Below, one piece after another: positions 366-30,304 of a stretch of DNA of 32,048 bases. Origin of the DNA: Minisyncoccota bacterium (lineage in GTDB: Bacteria; Patescibacteriota; Minisyncoccia; Phycocordibacterales; Phycocordibacteraceae); NCBI GenBank assembly GCA_022842945.1, contig JALHOO010000003.1:80458-112505 (forward strand), given 5' to 3'. The translations under genes were made by a program, and so were the position numbers. Within the stretch, counting starts at the first letter, position 1; each line of letters begins with the position of its first letter. The notes below the pieces were generated by a model. That model did no database searches. It was not told the origin of the DNA and worked only from the letters and a program-made list of their open reading frames with translations.

Positions 366-1061
366 TCATGTTCTAGAGGTATCGGGAGCGATTCCCTCAC
401 AGAAACTTTTTGCAATGTACATTAGTCTGCGACGTATTTCAACTTTGCCGCAACTGATTGCGCAGACACCCTTGTAGTGTGGGTAAGTAGACTTCCCATG
501 AGTTCTCATGTCTATAGATGTTTTTCCAAAACTAGTTTCCGGTAGTTGAAGTTGTTCTGCCCAATAGCTTCTTAGTAATTCAGGGTTCTGATCAGCGCGA
601 AGATGTAAGTAGCACCTAATCTTATCAAATGGGACTCCATACAGACGTTTTAGGCTTTCTGCGAAGAAGCGTGCGATGGCAGGGTCTGAACTTCCAAGGG
701 AAGTTGTATCGCCCTTGGCACCCTCGCCAAGATAGAGAAACGCAAGAGCAAGTTCAATGATGTGCGGGTCTTGAGTATCAAGCTCTTCTAATACACGTCT
801 CCCTGACTCGTTCGCTGCTTCAATGCGTACTTCCTTCTGTGTGGTATGCCACACCGCAGCCTTTTGTCTTGCACGTACGAGCCCTTCTTTCGACTGACGT
901 ATTAGCTCTTGTTCTTGCTCCATTGTAAGTTGAATGGACTTGAACCAACCACTAAGAGTCGAACGAGGAATACCAAGCTCCCGTTCGATAGTGCCGATAG
1001 ACAGCCCTGATTGCCTGAGTTCTATGGCGCGTGAGCGCAATTGTTCGAATCGAGACCTCAT
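366..1061 (-). CDS. HTH (resolvase-type) plus LAGLIDADG-like domain protein, possible free-standing homing-endonuclease-like gene
   Basis: N-terminal LRQSGLSIGTIERELGIPRSTLSGWFK is HTH-like. Internal LAFLYLGEGAKGD resembles the LAGLIDADG motif. Start taken at the ATG at 1061, with TATTAT 6 nt upstream. The TGA stop is 1 nt from the tRNA-Val 5' end. Confidence 0.45.
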   Translation of the reverse strand: MRSRFEQLRSRAIELRQSGLSIGTIERELGIPRSTLSGWFKSIQLTMEQEQELIRQSKEGLVRARQKAAVWHTTQKEVRIEAANESGRRVLEELDTQDPHIIELALAFLYLGEGAKGDTTSLGSSDPAIARFFAESLKRLYGVPFDKIRCYLHLRADQNPELLRSYWAEQLQLPETSFGKTSIDMRTHGKSTYPHYKGVCAISCGKVEIRRRLMYIAKSFCEGIAPDTSRT

Positions 1062-1114
1062 GTATACATAATACACTCAGAAGTACGAGCTATTGTATGT
1101 GATACGCTCAATCT

Positions 1115-4862: not shown

Positions 4863-4959
4863 CTAAAGAGACTCGAAGAGAGTCAGATCACCACCTTCAC
4901 AGCACAGCCAAGCTGTGCCTTGGTTTGGGTGTGTCGGCGGTGAAAGGTACAATGGCTTT

Positions 4960-6507
4960 ATGCGCGTCCAGACTCTCCGCCTGCTCGACTTCAAGCGTTT
5001 TCACGACCTCACAATCGACCTGACAACTAGGTCCACGAAAATCGTCGCCATCGTCGGGCCCAACGGCTCCGGCAAGAGCAGTGTGTTCGACGCGTTTGAA
5101 GAGATCGGAAGTTTTCAAAAAGGGCGAGGGGGCAAGTTAGAGGCTTACTACAAAAAATCTGCCCACGACCCGGCCGGTCCGGTTGTGCCAGGCTACGACG
5201 TTCATCGCTCTGTTCAGTTGGTGACCGACCCGGCCGAACTGACGCGTACGAGTATTTATATTCGAAGCGCGTACCGGTTCACGGCTCGGCTCGGTGTCGG
5301 GCAAATTCGCCAACTCCCTGACGCCGAAGCGGATGGTAACAGACCGCAGTATCTGATCGATACCGACGCGAGGCTCACCGAAAATTACGAGCGCCTAATC
5401 GGCCGCTTTTTCGGAGAGGTCTACAATAAGGACGTGAAGGGCGACGAGTGGGTCACGGCCAACATCGAAGGCATCAACGTTGTCCTGAGGGAGGTTCTGG
5501 ATATCCAAATATCCGACCTCGGTAACCCCGTCGAAGGGCAGGGGAGCCTGTACTTCGATAAGGGCACGTCGCGAAAATTTCCATACGAGAACCTTTCCGC
5601 GGGCGAGAAGGAGGTCGTCGACCTAGTGCTCGATCTCTACGTGAAGCGGACGATCTACACCGACAGCATCATTTGCATCGACGAGCCTGAGCTCCACCTC
5701 AACACGGCCATTCAGCGCCGACTTCTCATCGAACTCGAGAAGCTGGTACCCGATGGTTCTCAGCTTTGGGTGGCGACCCACAGCATCGGGTTCCTGCGCG
5801 CACTCCAAGAGGAGCTTCGAGACAATACAACGGTTCTCGATTTCAGCGATATCGATTTTGATGCGCCACATACGATCGTGCCGATCGCCGGGTCGCGTGC
5901 GGACTGGTCTCGCATATTCGCAACGGCGCTTGAGGACCTGACAGGTCTCCTTGCGCCTAGGCGGATCGTCTACTGCGAAGGACGTCCTGATCCGGGCGTG
6001 AACGGCGAAGAGCAAGGTCTCGACGCCGATGTGTACAACACGATTTTCCAGGAAGGGCACGGCGACACCCTGTTCGTGTCGAGCGGAGGTGGCGGAGAAG
6101 TCTCAAGGAATGCCCTTCTCGCGATGCGGATTCTCGGCAAGGCCCTCAGGGATGTGCGTCTCGATATTCTGAAAGACCGAGACCAACTTTCTGAAGCTGA
6201 GCGCGATGCCTTTCTTGCTGAGGACCCTTCGAAACGGATGCTGCGCCGGCATGAGCTGGAAAACTACTTGTTCGACAAAGAGGTGTTGCAAGCCTTCTGC
6301 GCCGGCAGGGGTGGAGCGCTTGATGAGGCTCGCTACGACGCAGCAGTGAATGACGTCCTTATGCAAGATCTCAAACTGGTCCAGCAGGAGATACAGGCCG
6401 CCTGCGCCTTCAGGGGAAACATGCCCGAATTTAAACGTGCCCTAGCATCCGCCTTCGACCCCGCGTTCGCGGTCTACCAGGATCTGGAAGCCTCCATCTT
6501 TCCCTAG
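4960..6507 (+). CDS. ABC-type (RecF/SMC-like) ATPase fused to a Toprim/DUF4435-like C-terminal domain; OLD-family or PARIS-like defence candidate
   Basis: Walker A GPNGSGKS, signature LSAGEKEV, Walker B IICIDEPELHL, VATHS. The C-terminus carries RIVYCEGRPD, SSGGGGEV, ILKDRDQL and HELENYLF. Start taken at the ATG at 4960 (MRVQTLRLLDFKRF). Confidence 0.65.
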   Translation: MRVQTLRLLDFKRFHDLTIDLTTRSTKIVAIVGPNGSGKSSVFDAFEEIGSFQKGRGGKLEAYYKKSAHDPAGPVVPGYDVHRSVQLVTDPAELTRTSIYIRSAYRFTARLGVGQIRQLPDAEADGNRPQYLIDTDARLTENYERLIGRFFGEVYNKDVKGDEWVTANIEGINVVLREVLDIQISDLGNPVEGQGSLYFDKGTSRKFPYENLSAGEKEVVDLVLDLYVKRTIYTDSIICIDEPELHLNTAIQRRLLIELEKLVPDGSQLWVATHSIGFLRALQEELRDNTTVLDFSDIDFDAPHTIVPIAGSRADWSRIFATALEDLTGLLAPRRIVYCEGRPDPGVNGEEQGLDADVYNTIFQEGHGDTLFVSSGGGGEVSRNALLAMRILGKALRDVRLDILKDRDQLSEAERDAFLAEDPSKRMLRRHELENYLFDKEVLQAFCAGRGGALDEARYDAAVNDVLMQDLKLVQQEIQAACAFRGNMPEFKRALASAFDPAFAVYQDLEASIFP

Positions 6508-7326: not shown

Positions 7327-8451
7327 CTATACGGAATAGATAGCTCCTCGAGCTTGAAGCGCCAGAAGAGAATCCACGGACTCGCGCCCTTCAACCGCTT
7401 CGTCTGCGATATAGAACGTGCGGTTCGGCTGGTCTCCGGGCATTTTGAACTCATACTTGCCAGGAGTTGCCGCAGCCGGTGTAAGGCGCTCAAGAAGCCA
7501 GCTGACATCCTCTCCGGCGAAGCTGGTGCCGTAGAGGCTGGAGCTTGCCATAAGATGACGCGCGATAGGAGCGCCCCCTGGAAGCACGAAGATCGCAGAC
7601 GCTTCAGGAAGCACGTCCCTCAGCATATACAGTCCGGTAAGCGCATCGTCAGCGATCGTAAGAGAGACGTCTTCTGGTTGAACGCGTGCTTCTGCAAGCG
7701 CCCTACGCAGAAGATGGTCAGCACTTGCTTCTTTGGTACCCAAAGAGGGCACTACATAGAAGCAGGGCTTCCCAGGCTTGCTCTCGTCTCTGAAGTCGAT
7801 GAGGGCGCGTTCTCCCATTTCAAGGAAGTGACTCGCAATCCGCAACTTCAAGTCAGTTTTGTGCTGCTCGTCTTCTGGATTGAACTGAAACCGCCAGTCG
7901 AGCGGCTGAACATCAGTTCGACCTTCATTGAAGGCGGTGTCATCTTCGAGTTTAGAAAGCGCGCCGAGAAGGTCGCCGTTGAAATCAATCTCTTCGAAGC
8001 GACGCCGGACATGCTTTCTGAAGTCCAGTCCACCAAGAAGCTCTGAGAACTCGCCGTCGTACGCATACCCTCTATCAGGTTGGCGCAGAAGAAGACTCCC
8101 TCCAAAGCCCACAATCGCAGAGGGGTCTAAATGACCCGCAAAGCGACGAACGCGTTCAGGTTTCGCATATACAAACCGGCCCGTTTCAGGATCGATTTCA
8201 AGATGCGGTGCTGCACGCGCGTAGCCATACTTGCGAGATGCTTCAAGCGCCTCGCTCGACATAACCATGCCAGTTTCGCGTGCGGTGTTATATACCACTG
8301 CACCGTTCCCGTGCGCCACTTCATGCATCTGGATCTGAGAAGTCTCAGAACCGGTGCAGGTGTTGTCGAGATCCAGAACACTTACGCGCGGATTACGACG
8401 CAGTCTCCGAACCAGCAGACTGTCCTTGTACGGATTAATCTTGGTTTCCAC
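7327..8451 (-). CDS. HAD-superfamily hydrolase (IIB-like)
   Basis: DxDxT motif VLDLDNT, NTAR, a conserved Lys in GTKEASADHL, and a distal acidic motif IADDALTG. GTG start. Confidence 0.6.
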   Translation of the reverse strand: METKINPYKDSLLVRRLRRNPRVSVLDLDNTCTGSETSQIQMHEVAHGNGAVVYNTARETGMVMSSEALEASRKYGYARAAPHLEIDPETGRFVYAKPERVRRFAGHLDPSAIVGFGGSLLLRQPDRGYAYDGEFSELLGGLDFRKHVRRRFEEIDFNGDLLGALSKLEDDTAFNEGRTDVQPLDWRFQFNPEDEQHKTDLKLRIASHFLEMGERALIDFRDESKPGKPCFYVVPSLGTKEASADHLLRRALAEARVQPEDVSLTIADDALTGLYMLRDVLPEASAIFVLPGGAPIARHLMASSSLYGTSFAGEDVSWLLERLTPAAATPGKYEFKMPGDQPNRTFYIADEAVEGRESVDSLLALQARGAIYSV

Positions 8452-8558
8452 GGTAGCCCCCAGTTGTGAATGAACAAGTCAAGCACACTCTACCTAACAT
8501 CATCTGAAGACTTCATGAACTCTCTAGGACGTCCTACATAGGCTATACTGTGCCAATC

Positions 8559-9776
8559 ATGGCGTTCACGCTCCCGAAACCCAAAGACTGTGCAGACTGC
8601 GGCAGTGGAGCTATATTCCACCGAACCACCTACATAAGCATTGTTATAGATGGCATCTTTGCACCGCTTTCAAGTCCGAACCCGTTCCTCAGAGGATTCA
8701 CGAGACTTGTGTACGGCATTGAACGCAGGGTTACGCCCTACATACTCAACACGCTCACGGACTGGGGATGGGCGAAACGTATACCCGAAGCAGATGACGA
8801 TACCCAACTCTTGGCACTTATGCTCTGGAACGAAGCTAAAGAGCGAAACATTGAGGTATCAGAGGTTCGTCTCTTCAACCTCCCACGCAACATCTTTACA
8901 GCGAAATACCCAGACGGCAGACGCATCGCATTTGAGGGCATTCCCATGCCCGCGAACGCAGACCTTGATCGCGCTCCCTGGATGGACAACAAGGACGTAC
9001 TCAAGAAGAAGTTCCGTGCGCTTGGACTTCCTGTTGCAAAGGGCGGGGCAGTTTCTACTCTTAAAGAAGCGAAGAAGCTTTTCAAGACGCTCACACCGCC
9101 TGTTATTGCAAAGCCGTTCTCCGGTTCAGCGTCGCGCCATACCGTTCTCCACATCATGAACGAAGAGGAACTCGAACATGGGTTTAACGTTGCAAAGCAA
9201 ATAGCACCTAAGGTTGTTATAGAAGAGGAGCTCGTAGGGGCGGTGTATAGAGCAACAACCGTGAATGGGGTATTTGCTGCAGCGCTTCGCAGAGACCAGC
9301 CTCACGTAACGGGAGACGGCACCCATACCATCAGAGAACTCGTAGCTATTGCAAACGAGCATCCAAGCCGACAAGGACCGTACTTCCACAGAATGCAGTT
9401 AGACGAGTACGCAGAGAAAGAACTTGAATGGCAGGGCTACACCTTCGACACCGTTCTTCCTCCGGGTATCAAAGCAACCTTGCACCAGAAGATTAATTGG
9501 AGCGTAGGAGGCACCACCTGCGACGTAACGGATGAGGTGCACCCGGACAACATAGAGCTCTTCGAAGAGGTGGCGAGAGTACTGAACGCCAAGATCGTAG
9601 GTCTCGACTTCATCATTGAAGACATGAGTCGCTCATGGAAAGAGCAGGAACGATGCGGCATCCTCGAGTGCAACAGCATGCCCTTCTTTGATAACCATCA
9701 CCTCCCGTTTGAAGGGAAGCCACGCAACGTTGCGAGCCTCATTTGGGACATGAACGAGCCTCAGAACAAAGCATAA
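8559..9776 (+). CDS. ATP-grasp domain protein (cyanophycin-synthetase N-terminal-like)
   Basis: LGLPVAKGG..PVIAKPFSGSASRHTV..VIEEELVGAVYRATTVNG..HVTGDGTHTIRELV matches the ATP-grasp pattern. Start could be the GTG at 8550 or the ATG at 8559. TATACT lies at 8544-8549. Confidence 0.55.
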   Translation: MAFTLPKPKDCADCGSGAIFHRTTYISIVIDGIFAPLSSPNPFLRGFTRLVYGIERRVTPYILNTLTDWGWAKRIPEADDDTQLLALMLWNEAKERNIEVSEVRLFNLPRNIFTAKYPDGRRIAFEGIPMPANADLDRAPWMDNKDVLKKKFRALGLPVAKGGAVSTLKEAKKLFKTLTPPVIAKPFSGSASRHTVLHIMNEEELEHGFNVAKQIAPKVVIEEELVGAVYRATTVNGVFAAALRRDQPHVTGDGTHTIRELVAIANEHPSRQGPYFHRMQLDEYAEKELEWQGYTFDTVLPPGIKATLHQKINWSVGGTTCDVTDEVHPDNIELFEEVARVLNAKIVGLDFIIEDMSRSWKEQERCGILECNSMPFFDNHHLPFEGKPRNVASLIWDMNEPQNKA

Positions 9777-16323: not shown

Positions 16324-16875
16324 CTATTGAATTTCTGATACAGCGCCCGGAAGCACGTCTATTCCGTCAACCGGCAGAAGACGGATGAACGCACGGCCCA
16401 TAATGTCGCGCTTGGGTAAGGCTCCCCAGGTGCGGGAGTCCGAGCTTTTCGGACGGTTGTCACCCATAACGAAGAACTGGTCTTCGCCAAGCGTGCGTTC
16501 AAGCGTGTACGTAGCGTCCTCAGAGACTACATACGACTCATCAAGCGTTATTTCTGTGCCATCAACTTTTGTTACGCGTGTAGTGCCCTGTTCAACATGC
16601 ACGGTTTCTCCCGGAAGACCGATAAGGCGCTTGATGTAGAACACACTCTCATCATTTGGGTACCTAAATACCACCACGTCGCCACGCTTTGGTTCGCTAA
16701 GACGGTATGAGAGCTGATCAACGATTAAATAATCGCCGCTATCAAACGTGGGATACATGCTTTCGCCTTCAACAACGAATGGTTGCGCAACAAAGAGGCG
16801 GATGGGGACGACAATAATGATTGCAAGGACAACGAAGGTGATGAGTTCACGAAACGCCGTCACAAGAACTTTCAT
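16324..16875 (-). CDS. lepB: signal peptidase I
   Basis: GESMYPTF (catalytic Ser), GDVVVFRYP, YIKRLIGLPGE (catalytic Lys), FVMGDNRPKSSDSR. Confidence 0.9.
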   Translation of the reverse strand: MKVLVTAFRELITFVVLAIIIVVPIRLFVAQPFVVEGESMYPTFDSGDYLIVDQLSYRLSEPKRGDVVVFRYPNDESVFYIKRLIGLPGETVHVEQGTTRVTKVDGTEITLDESYVVSEDATYTLERTLGEDQFFVMGDNRPKSSDSRTWGALPKRDIMGRAFIRLLPVDGIDVLPGAVSEIQ

Positions 16876-21615: not shown

Positions 21616-24096
21616 ATGCCTAAGAAAGCAGTTGTTCCTGAGGAGCCAATCGTACCGCGCGTAAACGTGGTGGATCAGTCTATTACGACTGAGATGCGCA
21701 CGAGCTACCTCGACTACGCGATGTCCGTTATCACGAGTCGTGCTCTCCCCGACGTACGTGATGGACTCAAGCCCGTACACCGCCGCATTCTCTACGCAAT
21801 GCGTATGACGGGACTCACGCCAACGGCGAAGTTCAGGAAGTCTGCGACGGTGGTGGGAGAGGTGCTCGGTTCGTACCACCCGCACGGCGACGCGTCGGTG
21901 TATGACGCGATGGTAAAGCTCGCGCAGGACTTCGCAACGCGCTACCTCTTGGTGCAGGGACAGGGTAACTTCGGTTCGGTAGACGGGGATCCGCCTGCTG
22001 CATACCGTTATACGGAAGCGAAGATGTCGCGCCTGGCGGACGAGATGCTCAAGGACCTCGAGAAGGAGACGGTTGAATGGGCACCGAACTTTGACGGTTC
22101 AAAGCAGGAACCAACCGTACTTCCAGCAGCGGTACCGAACCTACTCCTTAACGGTACGCTTGGTATTGCGGTGGGTATGGCAACCAACATTCCTCCGCAT
22201 AACCTGCGCGAAGTTGTTGCCGCTACCACCCACCTCATTGATGATCCGGAAGCAACGGTGGACGATCTTTTGGGTCACGTGAAGGGACCTGACTTCCCTC
22301 TTGGTGCAGTTGCGTTTAATCAGGCGGATATTAAGCACGCGTACACTACCGGACGCGGAGGTGTGGTAGTGCGTGGAGAGGCAGATATCGTTGAAGAGAA
22401 GAAGGGAACGTCAATCATCATCACCTCCATTCCATACCGTGTGAACAAGGCGGACCTCATCACGCGTATCGCAGACCTTGTGCGCGACAAGAAGCTCGAG
22501 GGCGTGAAGGATCTTCGTGACGAGTCCACCACCGACATCCGCATCAACGTGGAACTGAAGGGAACCGCACACCCGCAGGCCGTGCTCAACAATTTGTATA
22601 AGTACACTGAGCTCGAGAGCACCTTCCACTACAACATGTTGGCGCTCGTGGACGGCGTCCCAGAGACCCTTTCTTTGAAGGGTATGCTCGAGAGCTTTAT
22701 TGCGCACCGCAAGGAGGTAGTGAAGCGTCGTACTGAGTACGAGCTTCGCAAAGCTGAAGAGCGCGAGCACATCTTGCTTGGTCTCTCAAAGGCACTCGAC
22801 CATATCGACGAGGTTATCGCTACCATTAAGAAGGCAAAGGACGTGCCGGACGCTAGCGTTCAGCTCCAGAAGAAGTTTGGCTTCTCCATCATTCAGGCTG
22901 CAGCGATTCTCGACATGCGTCTTCAGAAGCTCGCAGGTCTTGAGCGCAAGAAGATTGAGGAAGAGCTCGCAGAAGTACAGGAGCTTATCAAGCGTCTCAA
23001 GAAGATTCTTTCAAGCGCAAAGAACATTCTTGCGGTTGTGCGTGACGAGCTTGTGGCTGTCGCTGAGAAGTACGGAGATGATCGCCGCACGAAGATTGTG
23101 AAGGGTGGAGTGAAGAATATTTCTGTAGAGGACCTGGTGCCAGACGAGGAGTCTGTCCTCGTGCTTACGGCAGGAGGCTACGTAAAGCGTACGAACCCTG
23201 AGGAGTACAAGGTGCAGAAGCGCGGAGGTGTAGGGGTTATCGATATGTCTACCAAGGAGGAGGACGTGGTTACACACTTCCTTGCGACAACTGCGCACGC
23301 AGACCTCCTCTTCTTCACGGACTTCGGCAAGGCATACCAGCTCAAGATGTATGAGCTTCCAGAAGGAAAGAAGGCAACCAAGGGAAAGAGCATCATGAAC
23401 TTCCTCTCACTTGCAGCAGACGAGAAGGTTACGTCGGTGCTTGCTATGCCTAAGGTTGAGAAAGGAAGTGGCGCACGCGACCAGCTCTCCGTATTCCTTG
23501 TTACCGAAGCCGGCACTATTAAGAAGGTTGAGGCGAAGTCCTTTGCTGACGTACGTCGCTCCGGCATCATCGCTATTGCTCTTAAGGGAGGAGATCGTCT
23601 GGTGTCTGCACACTTGGCTGCTCCTGGAGACTCCGTATCCATTGTTACGGCAGAAGGACAGTCCATACGCTTTGACGAGGGCGAGACCCGCGCCATGGGC
23701 CGCACGGCAGCGGGCGTGCGCGGCATGACAGTTAAGAAGGGAGACGCTATTGTCTCAGCTGAGGTTGTGCCTGCGGGAGCAAAAGCCGCATCCCTCCTCG
23801 TTATCATGGACAAGGGCTACGGCAAGAAGACGTCTTTGTCTGAGTACAAGGTGCAGGGACGCGGAGGCTCAGGCATCAAGACTGCTGACGTCACGGCAAA
23901 GACCGGAAAGATTATCGGTGCCAAGGTTCTTATCGGAGACGACGAGAAGGACGAGGAGCTCGTGGTTATTTCAAAGAAGGGACAGGTTATCCGCTGTTCA
24001 ACTGGAGAGATTCCTTCCCTTTCTCGTGCCACACAGGGCGTTCGTATTATGAAGATGCGCGAGGGAGACTCCATCGCATCGATGGTTGCGCTGTAA
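21616..24096 (+). CDS. gyrA: DNA gyrase subunit A
   Basis: [34 protein letters not shown], catalytic-Tyr region [11 protein letters not shown]-terminal beta-pinwheel repeats. Confidence 0.97.
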
Positions 24097-24107
24097 CAGA
24101 TCTATCT

Positions 24108-24485
24108 ATGAGCTTTGAACAACCCGGAGGTTTTGGACCGAAAGCGATTGACACCGTGCCAGACAAGGAGAAGCCGACACTTAACGCTGAAGGGTACTCA
24201 AAGCCCCCGCTCCTTGAGATCGTTAACACTACGTTTACTCCTGAAGAGAAGAAGCATCTCTGGGAAGTGTCTTCTGCAACCTCTATTCCAGCACTCAGGG
24301 AAGCCATTGAGAACTTTAATGCAGCGTCTAGTCCTAAGCTCGCTTCAGAGTATGGCGTAACACTGGATGTTATGGAGATAGTTGATCAAACGATTAACAC
24401 ACAGGAGATAGAAGGTTTTGAAGGCTCACAGGTTGTTCTCAATAGGACTATGCAGGGTGTCGCACGAATGGAGATACGGCCGTAG
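24108..24485 (+). CDS. hypothetical protein (125 aa)
   Basis: ORF packed directly after gyrA and followed by the terminator at 24518-24540. No recognisable motif. Confidence 0.45.
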   Translation: MSFEQPGGFGPKAIDTVPDKEKPTLNAEGYSKPPLLEIVNTTFTPEEKKHLWEVSSATSIPALREAIENFNAASSPKLASEYGVTLDVMEIVDQTINTQEIEGFEGSQVVLNRTMQGVARMEIRP

Positions 24486-24517
24486 TTTTTTAGGACGTCC
24501 GCTATAGTTTGTTGATT

Positions 24518-24540
24518 GCGAGACGCTAACCGCGTCTCGC
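24518..24540 (+). terminator. stem-loop ending the gyrA operon
   Basis: gcgagacgc / gcgtctcgc 9-bp stem with a 5-nt loop. Confidence 0.55.
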
Positions 24541-24541
24541 T

Positions 24542-24550
24542 TGCTATACT
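24542..24550 (+). promoter_or_regulatory. extended -10 TGCTATACT, 6 nt upstream of the methyltransferase ATG (leaderless-type)
   Basis: Plus strand reads cTTGCTATACT, tcctac, ATG. Confidence 0.5.
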
Positions 24551-24556
24551 TCCTAC

Positions 24557-25087
24557 ATGAACTTTAGCAACCCGCAGAACAACGTGCTCCAGCTCGGTCT
24601 TCGAGATGGAATGAAAGTGGCAGATCTGGGTGTAGGTTCCGGACACTATGCGGCAAGTGCCGGCGCTATTGTGGGACCTGAGGGCCGAGTGTATGCCGTT
24701 GATATCCAGGAAGACATTCTGAAGCATGTGAAGGACCATGCCGAGAGCAGAGGTCTACGAAACGTTGAGACGGTGTGGGGGAACTTCGAGAAACTTGGGG
24801 GCACCAAACTGCGTGACGCGTCTGTAGATGCGGTTATTCTTTCAAACACACTCTTCCAGCTTGATCATAGAGATGGGGCAGTTGCAGAGATAAAGCGCAT
24901 CCTAAAGTCTGGAGGAAGGCTGCTTGTTGTGGACTGGGCGGGTGCGTACGGTGGCATGGGGCCACTTCCACATCAGGTGGTGTCCGAGCATGTGGCTGAA
25001 GAACTATTCATCACCGCAGGCTTTCATAAAGTGAAAGACTTCCGTGCAGGGCCTCATCATTACTCCATTGTATTTACCGCGCCTTAA
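24557..25087 (+). CDS. class I SAM-dependent methyltransferase
   Basis: Motif I VADLGVGSGHYA, post-I YAVDI, GGRLLVVDW. Confidence 0.75.
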   Translation: MNFSNPQNNVLQLGLRDGMKVADLGVGSGHYAASAGAIVGPEGRVYAVDIQEDILKHVKDHAESRGLRNVETVWGNFEKLGGTKLRDASVDAVILSNTLFQLDHRDGAVAEIKRILKSGGRLLVVDWAGAYGGMGPLPHQVVSEHVAEELFITAGFHKVKDFRAGPHHYSIVFTAP

Positions 25088-25096
25088 CTCTTTCGT

Positions 25097-26401
25097 ATGA
25101 CGAATCTCAAACCGTTCCAGGTGATAATCATGGGGATTTTCGGCTTCATCGCTGTCCTTGGTCTTGTACTGTTCGCAAACTTCCAGGGATTCTCAAGTGG
25201 CGGACCACAGGTAGGCAAGGTGCTCATCTGGGGAACGCTGCCATCATCTGATTTCAATAGTGCCTTAAGTACGTTTAGAGAGGCACATACCGAGTATGCA
25301 AGTGTTTCGTATGTAGAGCAGCCTGCAGAGACCTTTGACCGAGACCTGGCTGAAGCTATTGCAACCGGTAGGGGTCCTGACCTTGTGGTTATTACCCAAG
25401 AGGAACTTCTCTCGGCACAAGGGAAGCTCACGCTCATCCCGTCCTCAACACTTTCTGAGCGCGACTTCCGAGATGACTATCTCCCTATTCACGAACTGTA
25501 CTTAACCTCTAACGGCACCTACGGTGTACCGTTCCTGGTTGACCCGCTCGTGCTCTTCTACAACCGTCCTATCTTGGCGTCAGCGGGTGCGCCTAGGCCT
25601 CCTGCTACCTGGGAAGCGGTTACTGGTCTTGCCTCAGCGGTGAACCGGCAGACAGACGCACAGACCGTTACCCAGAGCCTTATTGCGCTTGGTACGTATG
25701 AGAACGTAGAGAATGCGCGTGCCATCCTTTCGCTCCTCTTCCTTCAGGCAGGGTACAGCATCAGCGAGCCTGCAAGTGCGGGTATGCGCGCAACACTTTC
25801 CGACTCCAAGGAAAGTGTGTTTGGAAACTCTCCAGCCGTAAGTGCGTTGAACTTCTATACGGAGTTCGCGAATCCCGGAAAGACCGTGTACTCCTGGAAC
25901 CGCTCTCTACCCCTTAGTAGGGATGCATTCGTTGCAGGAGATCTCGCACTCTACTTAGGTTTCGCGTCCGAGCGCAACGACTTGGCACTCGCAAACCCGA
26001 ACCTCGACTTCGACATGGCGCCCGCACCGTCTCCATCCCTTACCACAACCCGCATAAGCTACGGAAACGCGTACGCGTTTGCGATACCACGCGCCTCTAA
26101 GAACAGTGACGGGGCGCTTCGTGCAGCACTCACGCTCTCTGGCAAGGACGGTTCCTACCTCTTCGCACGCGCAACCGGCATGGCTCCAGCACTTCGCTCT
26201 GAGCTCGCACCAACCAAGGACGACCTGTTCGAACCGGTGTACTACCCAGAGGCGCTTGTTGCTCGTGCCTGGCTCTCCCCAGCCATTGAAGAAACCGACC
26301 GCATCTTTGCTACCATGGTTACGAACGTGTTGAGTGGCAGGGAATCAGTGGCGAGTGCCATCTCAACGGCTACTCAGGCTCTTAATGCGGCGTTGAAATA
26401 A
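25097..26401 (+). CDS. membrane-anchored extracellular solute-binding-like protein (SBP family 1-like)
   Basis: N-terminal TM anchor. VPFLVDPLVLFYNRPIL and PPATWEAV resemble SBP_bac_1 patterns. No permease or ATPase genes are adjacent. Confidence 0.55.
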   Translation: MTNLKPFQVIIMGIFGFIAVLGLVLFANFQGFSSGGPQVGKVLIWGTLPSSDFNSALSTFREAHTEYASVSYVEQPAETFDRDLAEAIATGRGPDLVVITQEELLSAQGKLTLIPSSTLSERDFRDDYLPIHELYLTSNGTYGVPFLVDPLVLFYNRPILASAGAPRPPATWEAVTGLASAVNRQTDAQTVTQSLIALGTYENVENARAILSLLFLQAGYSISEPASAGMRATLSDSKESVFGNSPAVSALNFYTEFANPGKTVYSWNRSLPLSRDAFVAGDLALYLGFASERNDLALANPNLDFDMAPAPSPSLTTTRISYGNAYAFAIPRASKNSDGALRAALTLSGKDGSYLFARATGMAPALRSELAPTKDDLFEPVYYPEALVARAWLSPAIEETDRIFATMVTNVLSGRESVASAISTATQALNAALK

Positions 26402-26407
26402 TCTTCT

Positions 26408-26827
26408 ATGACTACTATTGCACCCCTTCTCCGAACGTACGCAGCTATGTTTGTGCTTGCCTTGCTGTCTGTGGCAAACGTTGCGAACGCACAGAACACT
26501 CCGGGAGGAGGGAATCCGGGCGGGGGAAACACGCCTGGAGGAGGAAATGCAGGAACCTCAGGAGGTCTCGTTAATCCATTGAACGGTATTAACTCTCTGC
26601 CTGAGTTTCTAAGTGCCATTCTGGCGGGTGTGGTACAGATCGGTACGATTGTCCTCATCATGATGCTCGTGTACGTGGGCTTCTTGTTTGTGGCGGCACG
26701 TGGCAACGCAGAGAAACTCCAGGGAGCAAAGAGCGCGCTCGTGTGGACGGTTATCGGTGGTCTGGTTCTCCTTGGCGCTACTTCCATCCAGCTTGTTATT
26801 CAGGGCACCGTTGATTCATTGCGCTAG
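26408..26827 (+). CDS. pilin-like two-TM secreted protein, paralog 1 (TrbC/VirB2-like topology) with a PGGGN repeat linker
   Basis: Signal peptide ..ANVANA, repeats NTPGGGNPGGGNTPGGGN, then TM, ARGNAEKLQGAKSALVW, TM. Confidence 0.6.
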   Translation: MTTIAPLLRTYAAMFVLALLSVANVANAQNTPGGGNPGGGNTPGGGNAGTSGGLVNPLNGINSLPEFLSAILAGVVQIGTIVLIMMLVYVGFLFVAARGNAEKLQGAKSALVWTVIGGLVLLGATSIQLVIQGTVDSLR

Positions 26828-26828
26828 T

Positions 26829-27125
26829 ATGCGATTTCTCCTATCAGCACTTGCGCTCCTGCTGCCTGTGCAGGCACAAGCAGCAAGTCTTAAAGAACTT
26901 ACCGAGGATCTCGTTGGGTTCGCGAACAACTCTATCGTGCCGCTCATCTACGCACTGGCGTTCCTCGTGTTCATCATTGGTATGGTCCGGTACTTTTTCC
27001 TTGAGCAAGGCGAAGAGGGACGCGAGAAAGGCAAGCAGCTCATGCTCTGGGGCATTATTGGCTTTGTGGTTATGTTCTCCGTCTGGGGCATCGTTAGGCT
27101 TCTTATGACGGCCCTTCCTGGGTAG
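26829..27125 (+). CDS. pilin-like two-TM secreted protein, paralog 2
   Basis: Start moved to the ATG at 26829 (MRFLLSALALLLPVQAQA). PLIYALAFLVFIIG..GEEGREKGKQLMLWGIIGFVVMFSVWG. Confidence 0.65.
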   Translation: MRFLLSALALLLPVQAQAASLKELTEDLVGFANNSIVPLIYALAFLVFIIGMVRYFFLEQGEEGREKGKQLMLWGIIGFVVMFSVWGIVRLLMTALPG

Positions 27126-27171
27126 TGCATAAGGGGTTGTTGCTTCCGTATATCCTGTTACGCTTCACTAT

Positions 27172-27549
27172 ATGAAAACTTTCGCTACTGTTCTGGCTCT
27201 TGGCCTGTTCGCCGTTACAAACACTGTTTATGCCCAGAATGGGGAGATTGGAGGCTCTACTCTCGGGGCATACCTTGAGAGCATTCGTGACTTCATCAAC
27301 ATCTATCTCATTCCGTTCCTGTTCGCTATCGCGTTCATCGTCTTCATTTGGGGAATATTCCAGTACTTCATTGCAGGAGGTGCGAACGAAGAACAGCGCG
27401 ACAAGGGAAAGCAGCTCGTTATGTGGGGAATCATTGGTTTCGTTATTATGGTCTCGGTCTGGGGTCTTGTTAACCTTGTTACGAACACCTTTAACTTAAA
27501 CAATGACAGTAGTGATCTGGAGCTTCCAACCTTCGATATAGCAAATTAA
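27172..27549 (+). CDS. pilin-like two-TM secreted protein, paralog 3
   Basis: Signal peptide ..NTVYAQ. PFLFAIAFIVFIWGIFQYFIAGGANEEQRDKGKQLVMWGIIGFVIMVSVWG. Confidence 0.65.
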   Translation: MKTFATVLALGLFAVTNTVYAQNGEIGGSTLGAYLESIRDFINIYLIPFLFAIAFIVFIWGIFQYFIAGGANEEQRDKGKQLVMWGIIGFVIMVSVWGLVNLVTNTFNLNNDSSDLELPTFDIAN

Positions 27550-27653
27550 CGCGGGAATTCGTTTTCCACACGTATTTCCTAGCTCTATTGACGCACTGCC
27601 ATTCCGGTCTATCCTATAGCTATACGCCATCGCGTTACCCGTAATCAAACATT

Positions 27654-28016
27654 ATGAAGAAACTAGGTTATCTCAGTGCAGCGTTCGCTCTCTCGTTCCC
27701 GCTCATGGCGGCTGCGCAGGTGAATGCAACAAACGTGCAGAACCTCGGCCAGGGTCTCATCGGTCTTATCAACAACGTTGCGGTACCGCTTCTTTTCGCT
27801 ATCGCGTTCATTGTCTTCATCTGGGGAGTATTCCAGTACTTCATTGCAGGAGGACATGACGAGGAGAAGCGCGAGACCGGAAAGAGCCTCATGCTCTGGG
27901 GAATCATCGGATTCTTCATCATGGTCTCGGTATGGGGTCTCGTGAACATCCTTCGCGGAACGTTCAACTTTGACGACAGCATCGATTACGGACAGGAGCT
28001 TCCTGAAAGGCGCTAG
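27654..28016 (+). CDS. pilin-like two-TM secreted protein, paralog 4
   Basis: Signal peptide ..LMAAAQ. PLLFAIAFIVFIWGVFQYFIAGGHDEEKRETGKSLMLWGIIGFFIMVSVWG. 56 of 59 nt identical to paralog 3 over 27795-27853 versus 27322-27380. Confidence 0.65.
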   Translation: MKKLGYLSAAFALSFPLMAAAQVNATNVQNLGQGLIGLINNVAVPLLFAIAFIVFIWGVFQYFIAGGHDEEKRETGKSLMLWGIIGFFIMVSVWGLVNILRGTFNFDDSIDYGQELPERR

Positions 28017-28036
28017 CTCAAACGCTCTCTCCACAC

Positions 28037-28064
28037 AAAAGCCCGCGCTATTGCGCGGGCTTTT
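28037..28064 (+). terminator. intrinsic terminator after paralog 4
   Basis: aaaagcccgcgc / gcgcgggctttt 12-bp stem with a 4-nt loop and a T-tract. Confidence 0.75.
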
Positions 28065-28072
28065 GCTATAGT
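28064..28072 (+). promoter_or_regulatory. extended -10 TGCTATAGT, 6 nt upstream of the paralog-5 ATG (leaderless-type)
   Basis: Plus strand reads tTTGCTATAGT, tcatgt, ATG. Confidence 0.45.
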
Positions 28073-28078
28073 TCATGT

Positions 28079-28327
28079 ATGAGCCCCTTCCAGACCTTCA
28101 TCGGCAAAGTACAGGCAGAAATTCTGACCCCCATCATCACCCTCCTTACCCTTGGAGCGTTTCTTATATTCCTCTGGGGTATTGTTGAGTTCATTGCGGG
28201 TGCTACAAACGAAGAGAAGCGTGCTGCAGGCCAGCAACATATGATCTGGGGCATCATTGGCCTCGTTATTATATTTGGTGCGAACGCTATCGTGTCTCTG
28301 CTTAAGGCAACGGTTGGAGCAACCTAG
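28079..28327 (+). CDS. pilin-like two-TM protein, paralog 5 (no signal peptide)
   Basis: PIITLLTLGAFLIFLWGIVEFIAGATNEEKRAAGQQHMIWGIIGLVIIFG is the same core as paralogs 1-4, but the protein starts directly at the pre-TM1 segment. Confidence 0.6.
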   Translation: MSPFQTFIGKVQAEILTPIITLLTLGAFLIFLWGIVEFIAGATNEEKRAAGQQHMIWGIIGLVIIFGANAIVSLLKATVGAT

Positions 28328-28347
28328 AGGTGTGTCTGTATAAAAAT

Positions 28348-28381
28348 GAGCCCGCGCTTCCAGTTAAGGAATCGCGGGCTC
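28348..28381. terminator. stem-loop between the convergent pilin array and the SPFH operon
   Basis: gagcccgcg / cgcgggctc 9-bp stem with a 16-nt loop. Confidence 0.45.
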
Positions 28382-28400
28382 GAAGTTTTGAACAAGGTGC

Positions 28401-29144
28401 TTAACCCGAATACGGTTCACGCCAGACTGCGAGGTTGAGTGCGATATTGCTCTTCGATTGGACCCGAACAGCAACGTACTTTTCGCACGCTTCCACGCTC
28501 CAGTTATGGACCACTCCTTTGCGGTCCATGCACTGATAGATGTAGCCGATCTTGGTTACATCAGACTCGGTGTCCGTACAGTCCAAATCGTCGTTCGCTT
28601 CGCAGCTTACGATCTTCTGACCCGTTGCGGCATATACCCAGTCAGACCATCCATCTCCTTGTGCAGGCGCCTCAAGAGGCGAAGGTACGTAGAGGGTGGG
28701 TGCGCTAGCTGAGGTGAACGTAGCGGACGGCATGGTGCCGGTGTTCGCGTTGATAGCGGCACGCGCCTCACGGGAAAGGCCGGGAGTTTGTCCGAACCCC
28801 ATCGAGGCCAGCCAAGGCACGACGATGAACCATACGAAGGCACCGACGACTGCCAGGGCTCCAGTCGTCTTAAGCAGGGCAAGCCAGAAGGGATCGCCAT
28901 GTCCGTGGGAGTCGTGACCCCCGCCACCCTTTGTGGGGTGATGGGGATCAGGATGTCCGGCGACCGGATGGTCGCCAGGTTTCTTCTCTTTTGTCGGAGC
29001 CTTCGGCTTCTTGTGGCCGACTCTTCGAGCGAGGATAATGCTTCCGACAATAACAGCAATTAGCCAAAGAAGTAGCCCGAAGGCGACGATGATGACAAAG
29101 CCCCACAGGATGAACCCGCCGAGCGTTTGAGCGGCTTCTTCCAA
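28401..29144 (-). CDS. membrane protein with a His-rich linker and a Cys-containing extracytoplasmic C-terminal domain (247 aa), orphan
   Basis: TTG start 6 nt after SD AGGAGAG and 11 nt after the SPFH stop. TM1, then KKPKAPTKEKKPGDHPVAGHPDPHHPTKGGGGHDSHGHGD, then TM2-3, then a domain with 4 Cys. Confidence 0.55.
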   Translation of the reverse strand: MEEAAQTLGGFILWGFVIIVAFGLLLWLIAVIVGSIILARRVGHKKPKAPTKEKKPGDHPVAGHPDPHHPTKGGGGHDSHGHGDPFWLALLKTTGALAVVGAFVWFIVVPWLASMGFGQTPGLSREARAAINANTGTMPSATFTSASAPTLYVPSPLEAPAQGDGWSDWVYAATGQKIVSCEANDDLDCTDTESDVTKIGYIYQCMDRKGVVHNWSVEACEKYVAVRVQSKSNIALNLAVWREPYSG

Positions 29145-29155
29145 CAGATTCTCTC

Positions 29156-30304
29156 CTATGGTTTAGTGCTGGCTGGTTTGCCGATAGTTCCGATAGCGTC
29201 AACAAGAGCCGATGGTACGACAAAAGTCGTTCCTTGGCCCATTGCCTCTGTAACGAGAATCTTCTCGCTCAGCGGCTGATTGGTCTCCATCGCCCGAAGA
29301 CGGGCAGTGATGGCGACGGCTTCAGCTCTTGCCTTCATTCTCGTTTCAAGCGCGGTAGCTCCAGCCCTGACAACAGTGTCATAGGCCGCAGCATTGGCGC
29401 CTGTCCTGACCGTCTCAGCATTCCGATCGGCAGTGTACGCCGCAAGACTGAGTCTCTCGTTCTCAGCGGCAGCTGCACCGCTAAGGACGATGGACTCGAG
29501 GTTCGCAGCCTTGATCGTTACGCCGATGTGGCCCTTAAGGCCCCTACGGTCTTTTTCATCGAGCCCGCATTCTTCTTCCTCAGGCAGACAGAGTGTCAGC
29601 TTTTGGATTGGAATGGAGAAGTTCTCCTTCTCGCAATTCTTCCCTTCGTCCGTTTCCGAACGAAGTTGGTCATAGGTGAAGGTGCCGATGAAGTTCCGTC
29701 CAATGCGATCTACATACGACTCGAGCTGAGTGCGCCAATCGTTTGATTCGAAGAGCGCCTTGTAGGGGTTCGTGATGCGGACGATGATGACGAATTCAGC
29801 TCGAACCGGGAGCATGTCCCGGGTCTTCGCGTCTTCGATAACCATGACATACGAGAAGTCGTTTGCGACGAATACCTCCGTCTCTTCCTCTCGATGCCAG
29901 ACATCACGCCCACCTTCAAGATTCGTCCGGTACTCGTTCCAGACGAAGTCGTACTTGTAGACTTCGCGCATGCCCGGAATCCCGACCCAGAAGAGGCCGA
30001 AGCTACGCGTGTACTGAGGCCGGGTTTCGTAGTTCTTGCCCGGCTTATTTGGAAGCACTTCCCATTCAGGCTCGTTCTCGTCGAAGTGGGGTTTACCTCG
30101 TTCGTTCAGATGGTAGCCGCGGAAGGAGAGAATCGCACGGTGAAAGGACTTGCCCTTCGCGATGATCTTTCCCTTGCCCTCAGGAACCTTCGTGTAAAGA
30201 AGGTTGGAATTCGCCGAGGTGCTCAGCAAGAACGGTGTGGCGATGTATGCACCACCGGCTGCAACAATAAGAGCGGCGGTCGCGGTCGCGGTAAGGATGC
30301 TCAT
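29156..30304 (-). CDS. SPFH/band-7 (prohibitin/flotillin-like) domain membrane protein
   Basis: N-terminal TM. VRAEFVIIVRITNPYKALF and IGVTIKAANLESIV are SPFH-like strands. Ala-rich coiled-coil tail. SD GAGGG lies 8 nt upstream. Confidence 0.55.
   Translation of the reverse strand: MSILTATATAALIVAAGGAYIATPFLLSTSANSNLLYTKVPEGKGKIIAKGKSFHRAILSFRGYHLNERGKPHFDENEPEWEVLPNKPGKNYETRPQYTRSFGLFWVGIPGMREVYKYDFVWNEYRTNLEGGRDVWHREEETEVFVANDFSYVMVIEDAKTRDMLPVRAEFVIIVRITNPYKALFESNDWRTQLESYVDRIGRNFIGTFTYDQLRSETDEGKNCEKENFSIPIQKLTLCLPEEEECGLDEKDRRGLKGHIGVTIKAANLESIVLSGAAAAENERLSLAAYTADRNAETVRTGANAAAYDTVVRAGATALETRMKARAEAVAITARLRAMETNQPLSEKILVTEAMGQGTTFVVPSALVDAIGTIGKPASTKP

Follow-up and report, generated by a model that had tools for sequence, protein, structure and literature searches.

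The window considered here, a stretch of 32,048 nucleotides (nt) of contig JALHOO010000003.1, derives from a drinking-water bacterium of the Paceibacteria (Parcubacteria; Candidate Phyla Radiation, CPR), and near-identical DNA is present in drinking-water metagenomes. Five consecutive plus-strand genes of this window, at 26408-28327, encode small membrane proteins of the type IV secretion system (T4SS) pilin family, termed P1 to P5. The array includes: (i) P1 (26408-26827, 139 amino acids), the most divergent paralog, in which the leader is followed by NTPGGGNPGGGNTPGGGN, a Gly/Pro linker with three PGGGN repeats, and by the two-helix core, (ii) P2 (26829-27125, 98 amino acids), the start of which is coupled to the P1 stop, with its ATG 1 nt past that stop and within a longer TTG-initiated frame, (iii) P3 (27172-27549, 125 amino acids), which has an acidic C-terminal tail, (iv) P4 (27654-28016, 120 amino acids), the candidate major subunit, and (v) P5 (28079-28327, 82 amino acids), which has no signal peptide.

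The five proteins can be aligned over a common helix-loop-helix core, with pairwise identities that range from 17% (P1-P2) to 55% (P3-P4). The N-terminal hydrophobic leaders of P1 to P4 end in AxA-type sites (ANA/Q, AQA/A, VYA/Q, and AAA/Q or VNA/T), as judged from sequence, hydropathy and, for P4, an AlphaFold2 (AF2) helix at residues 3-21. By contrast, P5 begins directly with mature-type sequence, and its reading frame is closed upstream such that no in-frame extension is possible. The AF2 model of P4 (54-sequence alignment, pLDDT 79) places the leader helix ahead of a helical hairpin formed by residues 28-65 and 70-103. Hydropathy and this model agree with the layout of the Pfam family PF18895, in which a short polar loop connects a pair of hydrophobic helices and a signal peptide in most cases precedes them. 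The open-reading-frame list, the alignment, hydropathy and the P4 model bear out much of an initial annotation of this DNA, made from the letters alone, including the five gene sizes and the shared core, the repeat linker of P1, the signal peptides of P1 to P4, the lack of one in P5, and the VirB2-type pilin layout of a leader plus a two-helix hairpin. The inter-helix loop was, however, misdescribed as basic; its net charge is +2, -1, 0, -1 and 0 in P1 to P5, respectively, and a conserved acidic EE pair resides beside R and K.

All five paralogs belong to PF18895 (T4SS_pilin), with scores of 29.7, 43.0, 43.2, 46.3 and 41.4 bits for P1 to P5 (E 7e-7 to 5e-12) against a gathering score of 26.6 bits, a match far beyond chance. 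The Pfam family suspected from the sequence was, thus, correctly named, and the absence of pilin-family hits that would have spoken against it was not encountered. A search of 5.8 billion proteins with P4 returns more than 1,000 matches, and PF18895 is assigned to all of the matches listed; nearly all of the named homologs belong to Patescibacteria, Paceibacterota or Parcubacteria, and NCBI gives several of them the name 'pilin'. Profile-profile comparisons between the five orthogroups give probabilities of 97.9-99.9%, and the paralogy of P1 to P5 is certain.

Beyond PF18895, the weak matches converge on three families of conjugative pilins: TrbC (P1 and P5), DUF4134 (P2, 19.3 bits) and NF045849 (all five). 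The last of these, the NCBIfam family of Mbov_0395 pilin-like conjugal transfer proteins from the integrative and conjugative elements (ICEs) of Mycoplasma, scores 47.7 bits with P3, 37 with P4, 31.3 with P5, 29.5 with P2 and 20.9 with P1, so that P3 alone exceeds the cut-off of 40 bits; no ICE context is present in the window. Orthogroup profiles were also compared by hhalign to five annotated plasmid VirB2/TrbC proteins from Agrobacterium, Sinorhizobium, Sphingobium and Bradyrhizobium. The P1 and P5 profiles align to real VirB2 in register over both helices, with probabilities of 38% (P 3.4e-4) and 30% (P 5.6e-4), respectively. Homology of the array proteins to canonical VirB2 is, on this weak similarity, plausible.

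A scan of one genome per GTDB species with P2 to P4 as queries returned 77 loci, nearly all of which are labelled Patescibacteria. Hidden Markov models of the window paralogs detect five tandem pilin open reading frames (range 5-7) in nearly every untruncated locus, and the last gene of the array is always short (about 76-101 amino acids). Counts given below refer to 50 five-gene arrays where positions are mapped and to 51 arrays where leaders and regulatory sites are scored. By best match among the window paralogs, position 1 is of type P1 in 49 of 50 arrays, position 2 of type P2 in 46, position 4 of type P4 in 49 and position 5 of type P5 in 49; position 3 is of type P3 in 33, while 16 of the remainder best match the closely related P4. 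Complete arrays all start with type 1 and end with type 5, and the extra copies of the six- and seven-gene arrays are of types 3 and 4. Median identity to the orthologs is 52-64%, compared to 17-55% between the paralogs of the window, and P4 is the most conserved of the set (median 64%, with 0.81 and 0.83 identity over the two helices). The lack of a leader at position 5 is likewise conserved, as 49 of 51 arrays have only two hydrophobic segments in this protein.

Judged by these position-wise matches, the five paralogs are ancient, separately conserved orthogroups in fixed order, and this set of five is shared by about 70 related species. Since each position forms its own orthogroup across about 50 species, the array is a fixed complement of distinct subunits and not a rapidly diversifying repertoire; the variable repertoire proposed at the outset fits poorly with this pattern. 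Within the orthogroups, the helices retain 0.61-0.83 identity to the window sequence, whereas the N- and C-terminal tails retain only 0.25-0.48, a combination that would be expected for the exposed termini of pilins. One locus departs from the common form: L064 (9917-10692) carries a pair of type-4 and type-5 pilin genes only, is found beside F-type ATP synthase genes, and is without the binding-protein gene, methyltransferase gene and gyrA that accompany the array elsewhere. This pair may represent a reduced form of the locus or one that has been relocated.

The spacing of the genes and the sites between them differ along the array. The median intergenic gaps of the relatives are -4 nt (P1/P2, an ATGA overlap), 40, 95 and 64 nt. 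A promoter of leaderless type is predicted for P3 at 27137-27164 on the plus strand (TTGTTG, a 16-nt spacer and a TG-extended TACGCT) and ends 7 nt before the ATG; in 41 of 51 arrays, a TGnTAnnnT box precedes the P3 ATG by 6-10 nt, and in 37 of those the distance is 6-8 nt. Ahead of P4, a consensus scan predicts a sigma-70-type promoter at 27588-27615 on the plus strand (TTGACG, 16 nt, TATCCT), and a TTGAC-N16-19-TAnnnT element is found upstream of the P4 ortholog in 45 of 51 arrays. The 5' untranslated region (UTR) of P4 (27616-27653) has no Shine-Dalgarno sequence and includes a GTTACCCGTAATCA-like stretch that is conserved across relatives; indeed, an obvious Shine-Dalgarno sequence is seen at none of the five pilin genes.

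P4 is followed on the plus strand by a GC-rich, terminator-like hairpin at 28036-28065 (a 13-bp stem with a TATT loop, then TTTT; -26.1 kcal/mol). A hairpin of -20 kcal/mol or lower occurs between P4 and P5 in 46 of 51 arrays, with a median z of -5.1 compared to shuffled sequences and with 41 distinct stem sequences, while no excess structure over shuffles was seen in the other gaps of the array. Rfam returns only sub-threshold matches of attenuator or terminator type for this hairpin. Just 5' of it, in the non-coding 3' UTR of P4, is a TCTCCAC motif (28028-28034, plus strand), and 36 of 51 arrays have a TCTCC-like motif (TCTCCAC / TTCTCCAC) at a distance of 1-5 nt on the upstream side of the hairpin; the motif is too distant from the P5 -10 box to serve as a -35 element, and it matches no Rfam family. 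The -10 box of P5 is the extended type, TGCTATAGT (TGcTATAGT, 28064-28072, plus strand), and ends 6 nt before the ATG. In 41 of 51 arrays, a TGnTAnnnT box precedes the P5 ATG by 6-9 nt, whereas 0.8% of random 21-mers contain such a box, and a -10 box at this distance is the signature of a leaderless mRNA. Separate transcription of P5 after a strong terminator, from a leaderless-type promoter, had been proposed from the window alone and holds up, with both elements conserved. Downstream of P5, a hairpin at 28348-28381 separates the array from a convergent minus-strand gene and is a probable bidirectional terminator (RNAfold -28.7 kcal/mol for 28328-28400); hairpins similar to it are found after P5 in 49 of 50 arrays.

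Based on the conserved promoter boxes, gaps and hairpins, four transcription units may be distinguished: P1 and P2 with the binding-protein gene that precedes them, P3, P4, and P5. P4 is probably the major structural subunit, as it is predicted to be monocistronic with a strong promoter and a strong terminator and is the most conserved of the set. Three wastewater RNA-seq runs include short near-identical contigs that, within the array, map to the P4 region only, a weak indication given that these are assembled contigs. A fourth run labelled RNA-Seq, compared over 23500-29500 of the window, yields a 42.5-kb contig of a relative with about 90-93% identity, which is of flat depth and ends at the P5 stop; the flat depth points to probable carry-over of DNA, and per-gene expression cannot be read from it.

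The gene upstream of the array (25097-26401, plus strand) encodes a membrane-anchored protein of 434 amino acids with the fold of an oligosaccharide-type solute-binding protein, and 6 nt separate its stop codon from the start of P1. The assignment is based on Pfam (SBP_bac_1, 1.7e-16) and on an AF2 model (pLDDT 85, pTM 0.83) with an N-terminal membrane helix at residues 6-27, for which the best Foldseek matches are beta-glycoside, maltodextrin and mannooligosaccharide binding proteins (E of about 1e-21, TM 0.7). In 72 of 77 loci, the gene adjoins the first pilin gene at a distance of 0-11 nt; of the five loci in which it does not, four are on truncated contigs and the fifth is an atypical locus of two genes. 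A cognate permease or ATPase is encoded neither in the window nor in the flanks of the 77 loci. Upstream of the binding-protein gene is that of a class I S-adenosylmethionine (SAM)-dependent methyltransferase (24557-25087, plus strand, 176 amino acids; Pfam Methyltransf_31, _11 and _25); in 69 of 77 loci, an ortholog of this gene precedes the array by about 1.3 kb. These two genes are, thus, parts of a conserved block and not the incidental or orphan neighbors for which they were first taken. The binding-protein gene is likely to be co-transcribed with P1 and P2, and a functional coupling of the binding protein to the pilins is hypothesized. The conserved adjacency in part reflects a general stability of gene order, as gyrA, a metallo-beta-lactamase (MBL)-fold gene and the gene for ribosomal protein S1 are also syntenic in most loci of these small genomes.

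The window as a whole is ordinary chromosome, with genes for Sua5, a Na/Ca exchanger, FtsZ, FtsA, YbeY, signal peptidase I (lepB, 16324-16875), Pth, ribosomal protein S1, GyrA and alanine racemase. The order gyrA, methyltransferase, solute-binding-like protein, five pilins and minus-strand genes is also found in contigs of 454-503 kb in which P4 is 75-93% identical. The locus is a vertically inherited part of the core genome and is flanked by gyrA and alr within a stretch of chromosome that is conserved as a backbone. The window encodes no VirB4, VirB6, VirD4 or type IV pilus protein, as the initial annotation had noted for the first three, and no virB3 or virB4 gene is adjacent to the array in the window or within 10 kb of it in the 77 loci.

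Pilin genes without nearby machinery are a known and common arrangement, and the initial view of this arrangement as new is superseded by published work (PMC12102498; PMC10633639). Using PF18895 and PF04956 to search 3,035 Patescibacteria genomes, Quiñonero-Coronel et al. 2025 found VirB2-like pilins in 1,948 VirB4-positive assemblies, of which only 1,135 have them near virB4; about 40% of the pilin loci are away from it (PMC12102498). The same study catalogs 441 arrays of 2-11 pilin genes in 383 Patescibacteria assemblies, with a mean identity of 25% and a maximum of 54%, which are most abundant in Microgenomatia and Saccharimonadia. An array is defined there as 2-11 pilin-family genes of a Patescibacteria genome, in tandem or with one non-pilin gene between; the five consecutive genes described here, with relatives in Patescibacteria/Paceibacteria, agree with this definition. 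In Paceibacteria, virB4 is usually located near dnaA/dnaN. Three relatives that carry the same five-gene array, Parcubacteria bacterium C7867-001, -004 and -007 (L044, L013 and L051 among the 77 loci), are listed as VirB4-positive in Table S1 of PMC12102498, and relatives, thus, have the machinery elsewhere in the genome. The T4SS cluster of Southlakia epibionticum includes a series of pilins that is essential (Wang et al. 2023; PMC10633639; PMC12857230), although the function of the Patescibacteria T4SS is stated in the literature as not known. The MPF-FATA systems are described as being without VirB2 homologs (PMC12102498), a statement on which the NF045849 matches bear; they suggest that, in the Tenericutes branch of this class at least, a VirB2-like protein may be native.

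The locus is, with moderate confidence, best explained as a core-genome set of five non-redundant VirB2-like paralogs that feed a surface structure built by a T4SS. In this mechanism, the Sec leaders of P1 to P4 would be removed by signal peptidase I, and the proteins would enter the membrane as helical hairpins, their two variable tails exposed outside and their short charged loop facing the cytoplasm, while P5 would insert leaderless and uncleaved. The pilins would, thereby, form a membrane pool for a chromosomal, monoderm-type (MPF-FATA-like) T4SS encoded elsewhere in the genome. Powered by VirB4, this system would draw subunits from the pool and assemble them as a surface filament or as the portion of a channel outside the cell, and the resulting structure would serve contact or exchange with a host cell. 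P4, monocistronic with its own promoter and terminator, would be the abundant major subunit; P1 and P2 would be low-abundance subunits co-translated with the membrane-anchored sugar-binding protein; and P3 and P5 would be transcribed separately as leaderless mRNAs. Family membership, paralogy, conservation of the orthogroups, the regulatory anatomy and the lack of nearby machinery are observed, whereas use by a T4SS, filament formation and the division into major and minor roles are deduced. A more elaborate form, in which a heteromeric T4SS-type pilus has a shaft of P4, a glycan-recognizing tip or initiation complex of P1, P2 and the binding protein, and a membrane base of P5, and latches onto host-cell surface polysaccharide, is speculative and seems doubtful. 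VirB2-type pili are homopolymers apart from VirB5 at the tip, and a major/minor-pilin organization has, to our knowledge, never been described for them.

Several observations weigh against use of the pilins by a T4SS. No T4SS machinery is encoded within 10 kb of the array in any of the 77 loci, such that the link to a T4SS is made through the family name and through co-occurrence reported by others. The model of the canonical TrbC/VirB2 family is not matched at its cut-off: P1 and P5 score 19.7 and 19.2 bits with PF04956 (E of about 1e-3), below the gathering score of 27.9, and P2 to P4 do not match it. The P4-family profile has no similarity to VirB2 by hhalign (probability 0.3-0.5%) and finds nothing meaningful among PDB sequences. 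In Foldseek, the P4 model returns generic helical matches from the PDB (all E > 1) and no conjugative pilin, a result that counts neither for nor against a pilin fold as the method is uninformative for a simple two-helix hairpin. The evidence for P4 expression is weak, coming as it does from short assembled contigs, and we know of no T4SS pilus that has been seen in any Patescibacterium.

The same genes could be read in other ways. If the five proteins were interchangeable alternatives for the major pilin, used to vary the surface or broaden the host range, the strong differences between the N- and C-terminal tails of the paralogs, which are their least conserved parts, and the presence in some lineages of one or two additional genes of types 3 and 4 would be readily understood. 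Variation among VirB2 paralogs is proposed for Bartonella and Anaplasma and suggested for Patescibacteria, and the idea is favored in the published discussion (PMC12102498). This explanation is nonetheless unlikely, as each position is a separate orthogroup in about 50 species with ortholog identities above most of those between paralogs (52-64% versus 17-55%), order and sizes are fixed, the expression signals differ between paralogs and are conserved, and one type (P5) is without a leader in 49 of 51 arrays. It is improbable, too, that the hairpins form a membrane complex that is independent of a T4SS and works with the co-transcribed sugar-binding protein, such as an unusual uptake or anchoring device. 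The 72 loci with a solute-binding-fold gene next to P1 and no permease or ATPase partner nearby are consistent with such a complex, as are the lack of a T4SS gene near any locus and the weak similarity to true VirB2. The synteny extends through gyrA and housekeeping genes, however, which renders the adjacency weak functional evidence; furthermore, the remote matches to named, characterized families, weak as they are, all lead to conjugative pilins, and the PF18895 family is found inside a T4SS cluster in Saccharimonadia (PMC10633639). No transporter built from two-helix hairpin subunits is known to us, which also counts against this complex.

That the genes encode holin-like or phage-derived small membrane proteins, or are decaying remnants of a mobile element, is very improbable. 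Small size and two hydrophobic helices are all that favor this origin. The generic holin family, which the initial annotation had named as an identity that would overturn a pilin assignment, was not found, as a PHROGs search (E up to 0.01) gives no phage or holin family match for the array proteins while PF18895 matches them all. A tblastn search of 72,556 plasmids with P3 gives zero matches, no lysin, integrase or relaxase is encoded near the array in the window, and the five genes are all intact and conserved between gyrA and alr in the backbone of 77 species. A holin or phage origin is effectively refuted by conservation and genomic context.

Other genes of the window merit brief mention. 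Convergent with the array, a minus-strand gene (28401-29144) encodes a membrane protein that has a segment rich in Gly, His and Pro and a C-terminal domain with Cys; the protein has no family match, and the gene is poorly conserved. It is followed by an SPFH/Band_7 protein gene (29156-30304, minus strand), and in about 30 related loci, too, genes of Band_7 type are found on the downstream side of the array. Among the housekeeping genes are those of a transposase-like helix-turn-helix protein (366-1076, minus strand) and a 530-amino-acid AAA_21/AAA_15 ATPase of AbiEii/OLD-like type (4915-6507, plus strand), which could be a small defense or mobile insertion. Two open reading frames at 7327-8451 (minus strand, 374 amino acids) and 8550-9776 (plus strand, 408 amino acids) have no Pfam match at E up to 1e-3; the product of the latter resembles an ATP-grasp ligase by eye.

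Patescibacteria account for a large share of bacterial diversity, and in the one species tested their T4SS together with its pilin array is essential. The pilin genes described here are a stable core-genome module across the whole class; the five members are non-redundant, their expression signals are differentiated and a sugar-binding protein is tightly coupled to them, features that together suggest a division of labor among subunits rather than simple antigenic variety. As the family and the phenomenon of arrays are already published, the locus is modest as the discovery of a new kind of system. Compared to the published work found, the new elements appear to be the class-wide organization into five fixed orthogroups, the promoters that differ between paralogs, the conservation of a paralog without a signal peptide and the tight coupling to a sugar-binding protein. 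The locus also yields testable hypotheses regarding the identity of the major subunit, the binding protein as part of the structure, and the insertion of a leaderless, signal-less pilin.

Of the known systems, the pilin sets of type IV pili share only a logic with the array, in that a highly expressed major subunit is joined by conserved, non-redundant minor subunits and sometimes an adhesin. This is an analogy, as the fold and machinery are unrelated and the array has neither a class III leader nor a prepilin peptidase site. Canonical VirB2 (Agrobacterium), TrbC (RP4) and TraA (F) are closer, with a leader, two hydrophobic helices, a short cytoplasmic loop and termini outside, and with weak in-register sequence similarity to P1 and P5. 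Unlike these pilins, however, the array proteins score below the PF04956 cut-off, are encoded by five paralogs instead of a single gene, and have a mixed-charge loop with a conserved EE where the canonical loop is basic; the host is a monoderm, virB3/virB4 are not adjacent, and no genes for cyclization or acetylation are evident. The Mbov_0395 / MMCAP2_0565 family (NF045849) likewise has a two-helix core of about 80 residues and monoderm hosts, and the Mycoplasma T4SS is of the MPF-FATA class that is the proposed source of the Patescibacteria T4SS. By contrast, the Mycoplasma pilin-like genes are single and inside an ICE, while the array described here is a chromosomal set of five without ICE genes.

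The closest known counterparts are the arrays of other Patescibacteria, including the six-pilin array of Ca. Southlakia epibionticum ML1 and the 441 catalogued ones, which share the same Pfam family (PF18895) and the same tandem organization of paralogs that are divergent but structurally alike. The identities are similar (17-55% here, compared to a mean of 25% and a maximum of 54% in the catalog), and both are chromosomal, with no relaxase nearby, in monoderm hosts with reduced genomes. The ML1 array is inside its T4SS cluster, whereas the array of the window is away from any T4SS gene; and while the catalogued arrays are most abundant in Microgenomatia and Saccharimonadia, this one is from the class Paceibacteria. 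It is further distinguished from the catalogued arrays by its five orthogroups, which are fixed clade-wide, by a coupled gene of solute-binding fold, and by one paralog that consistently lacks a signal peptide.

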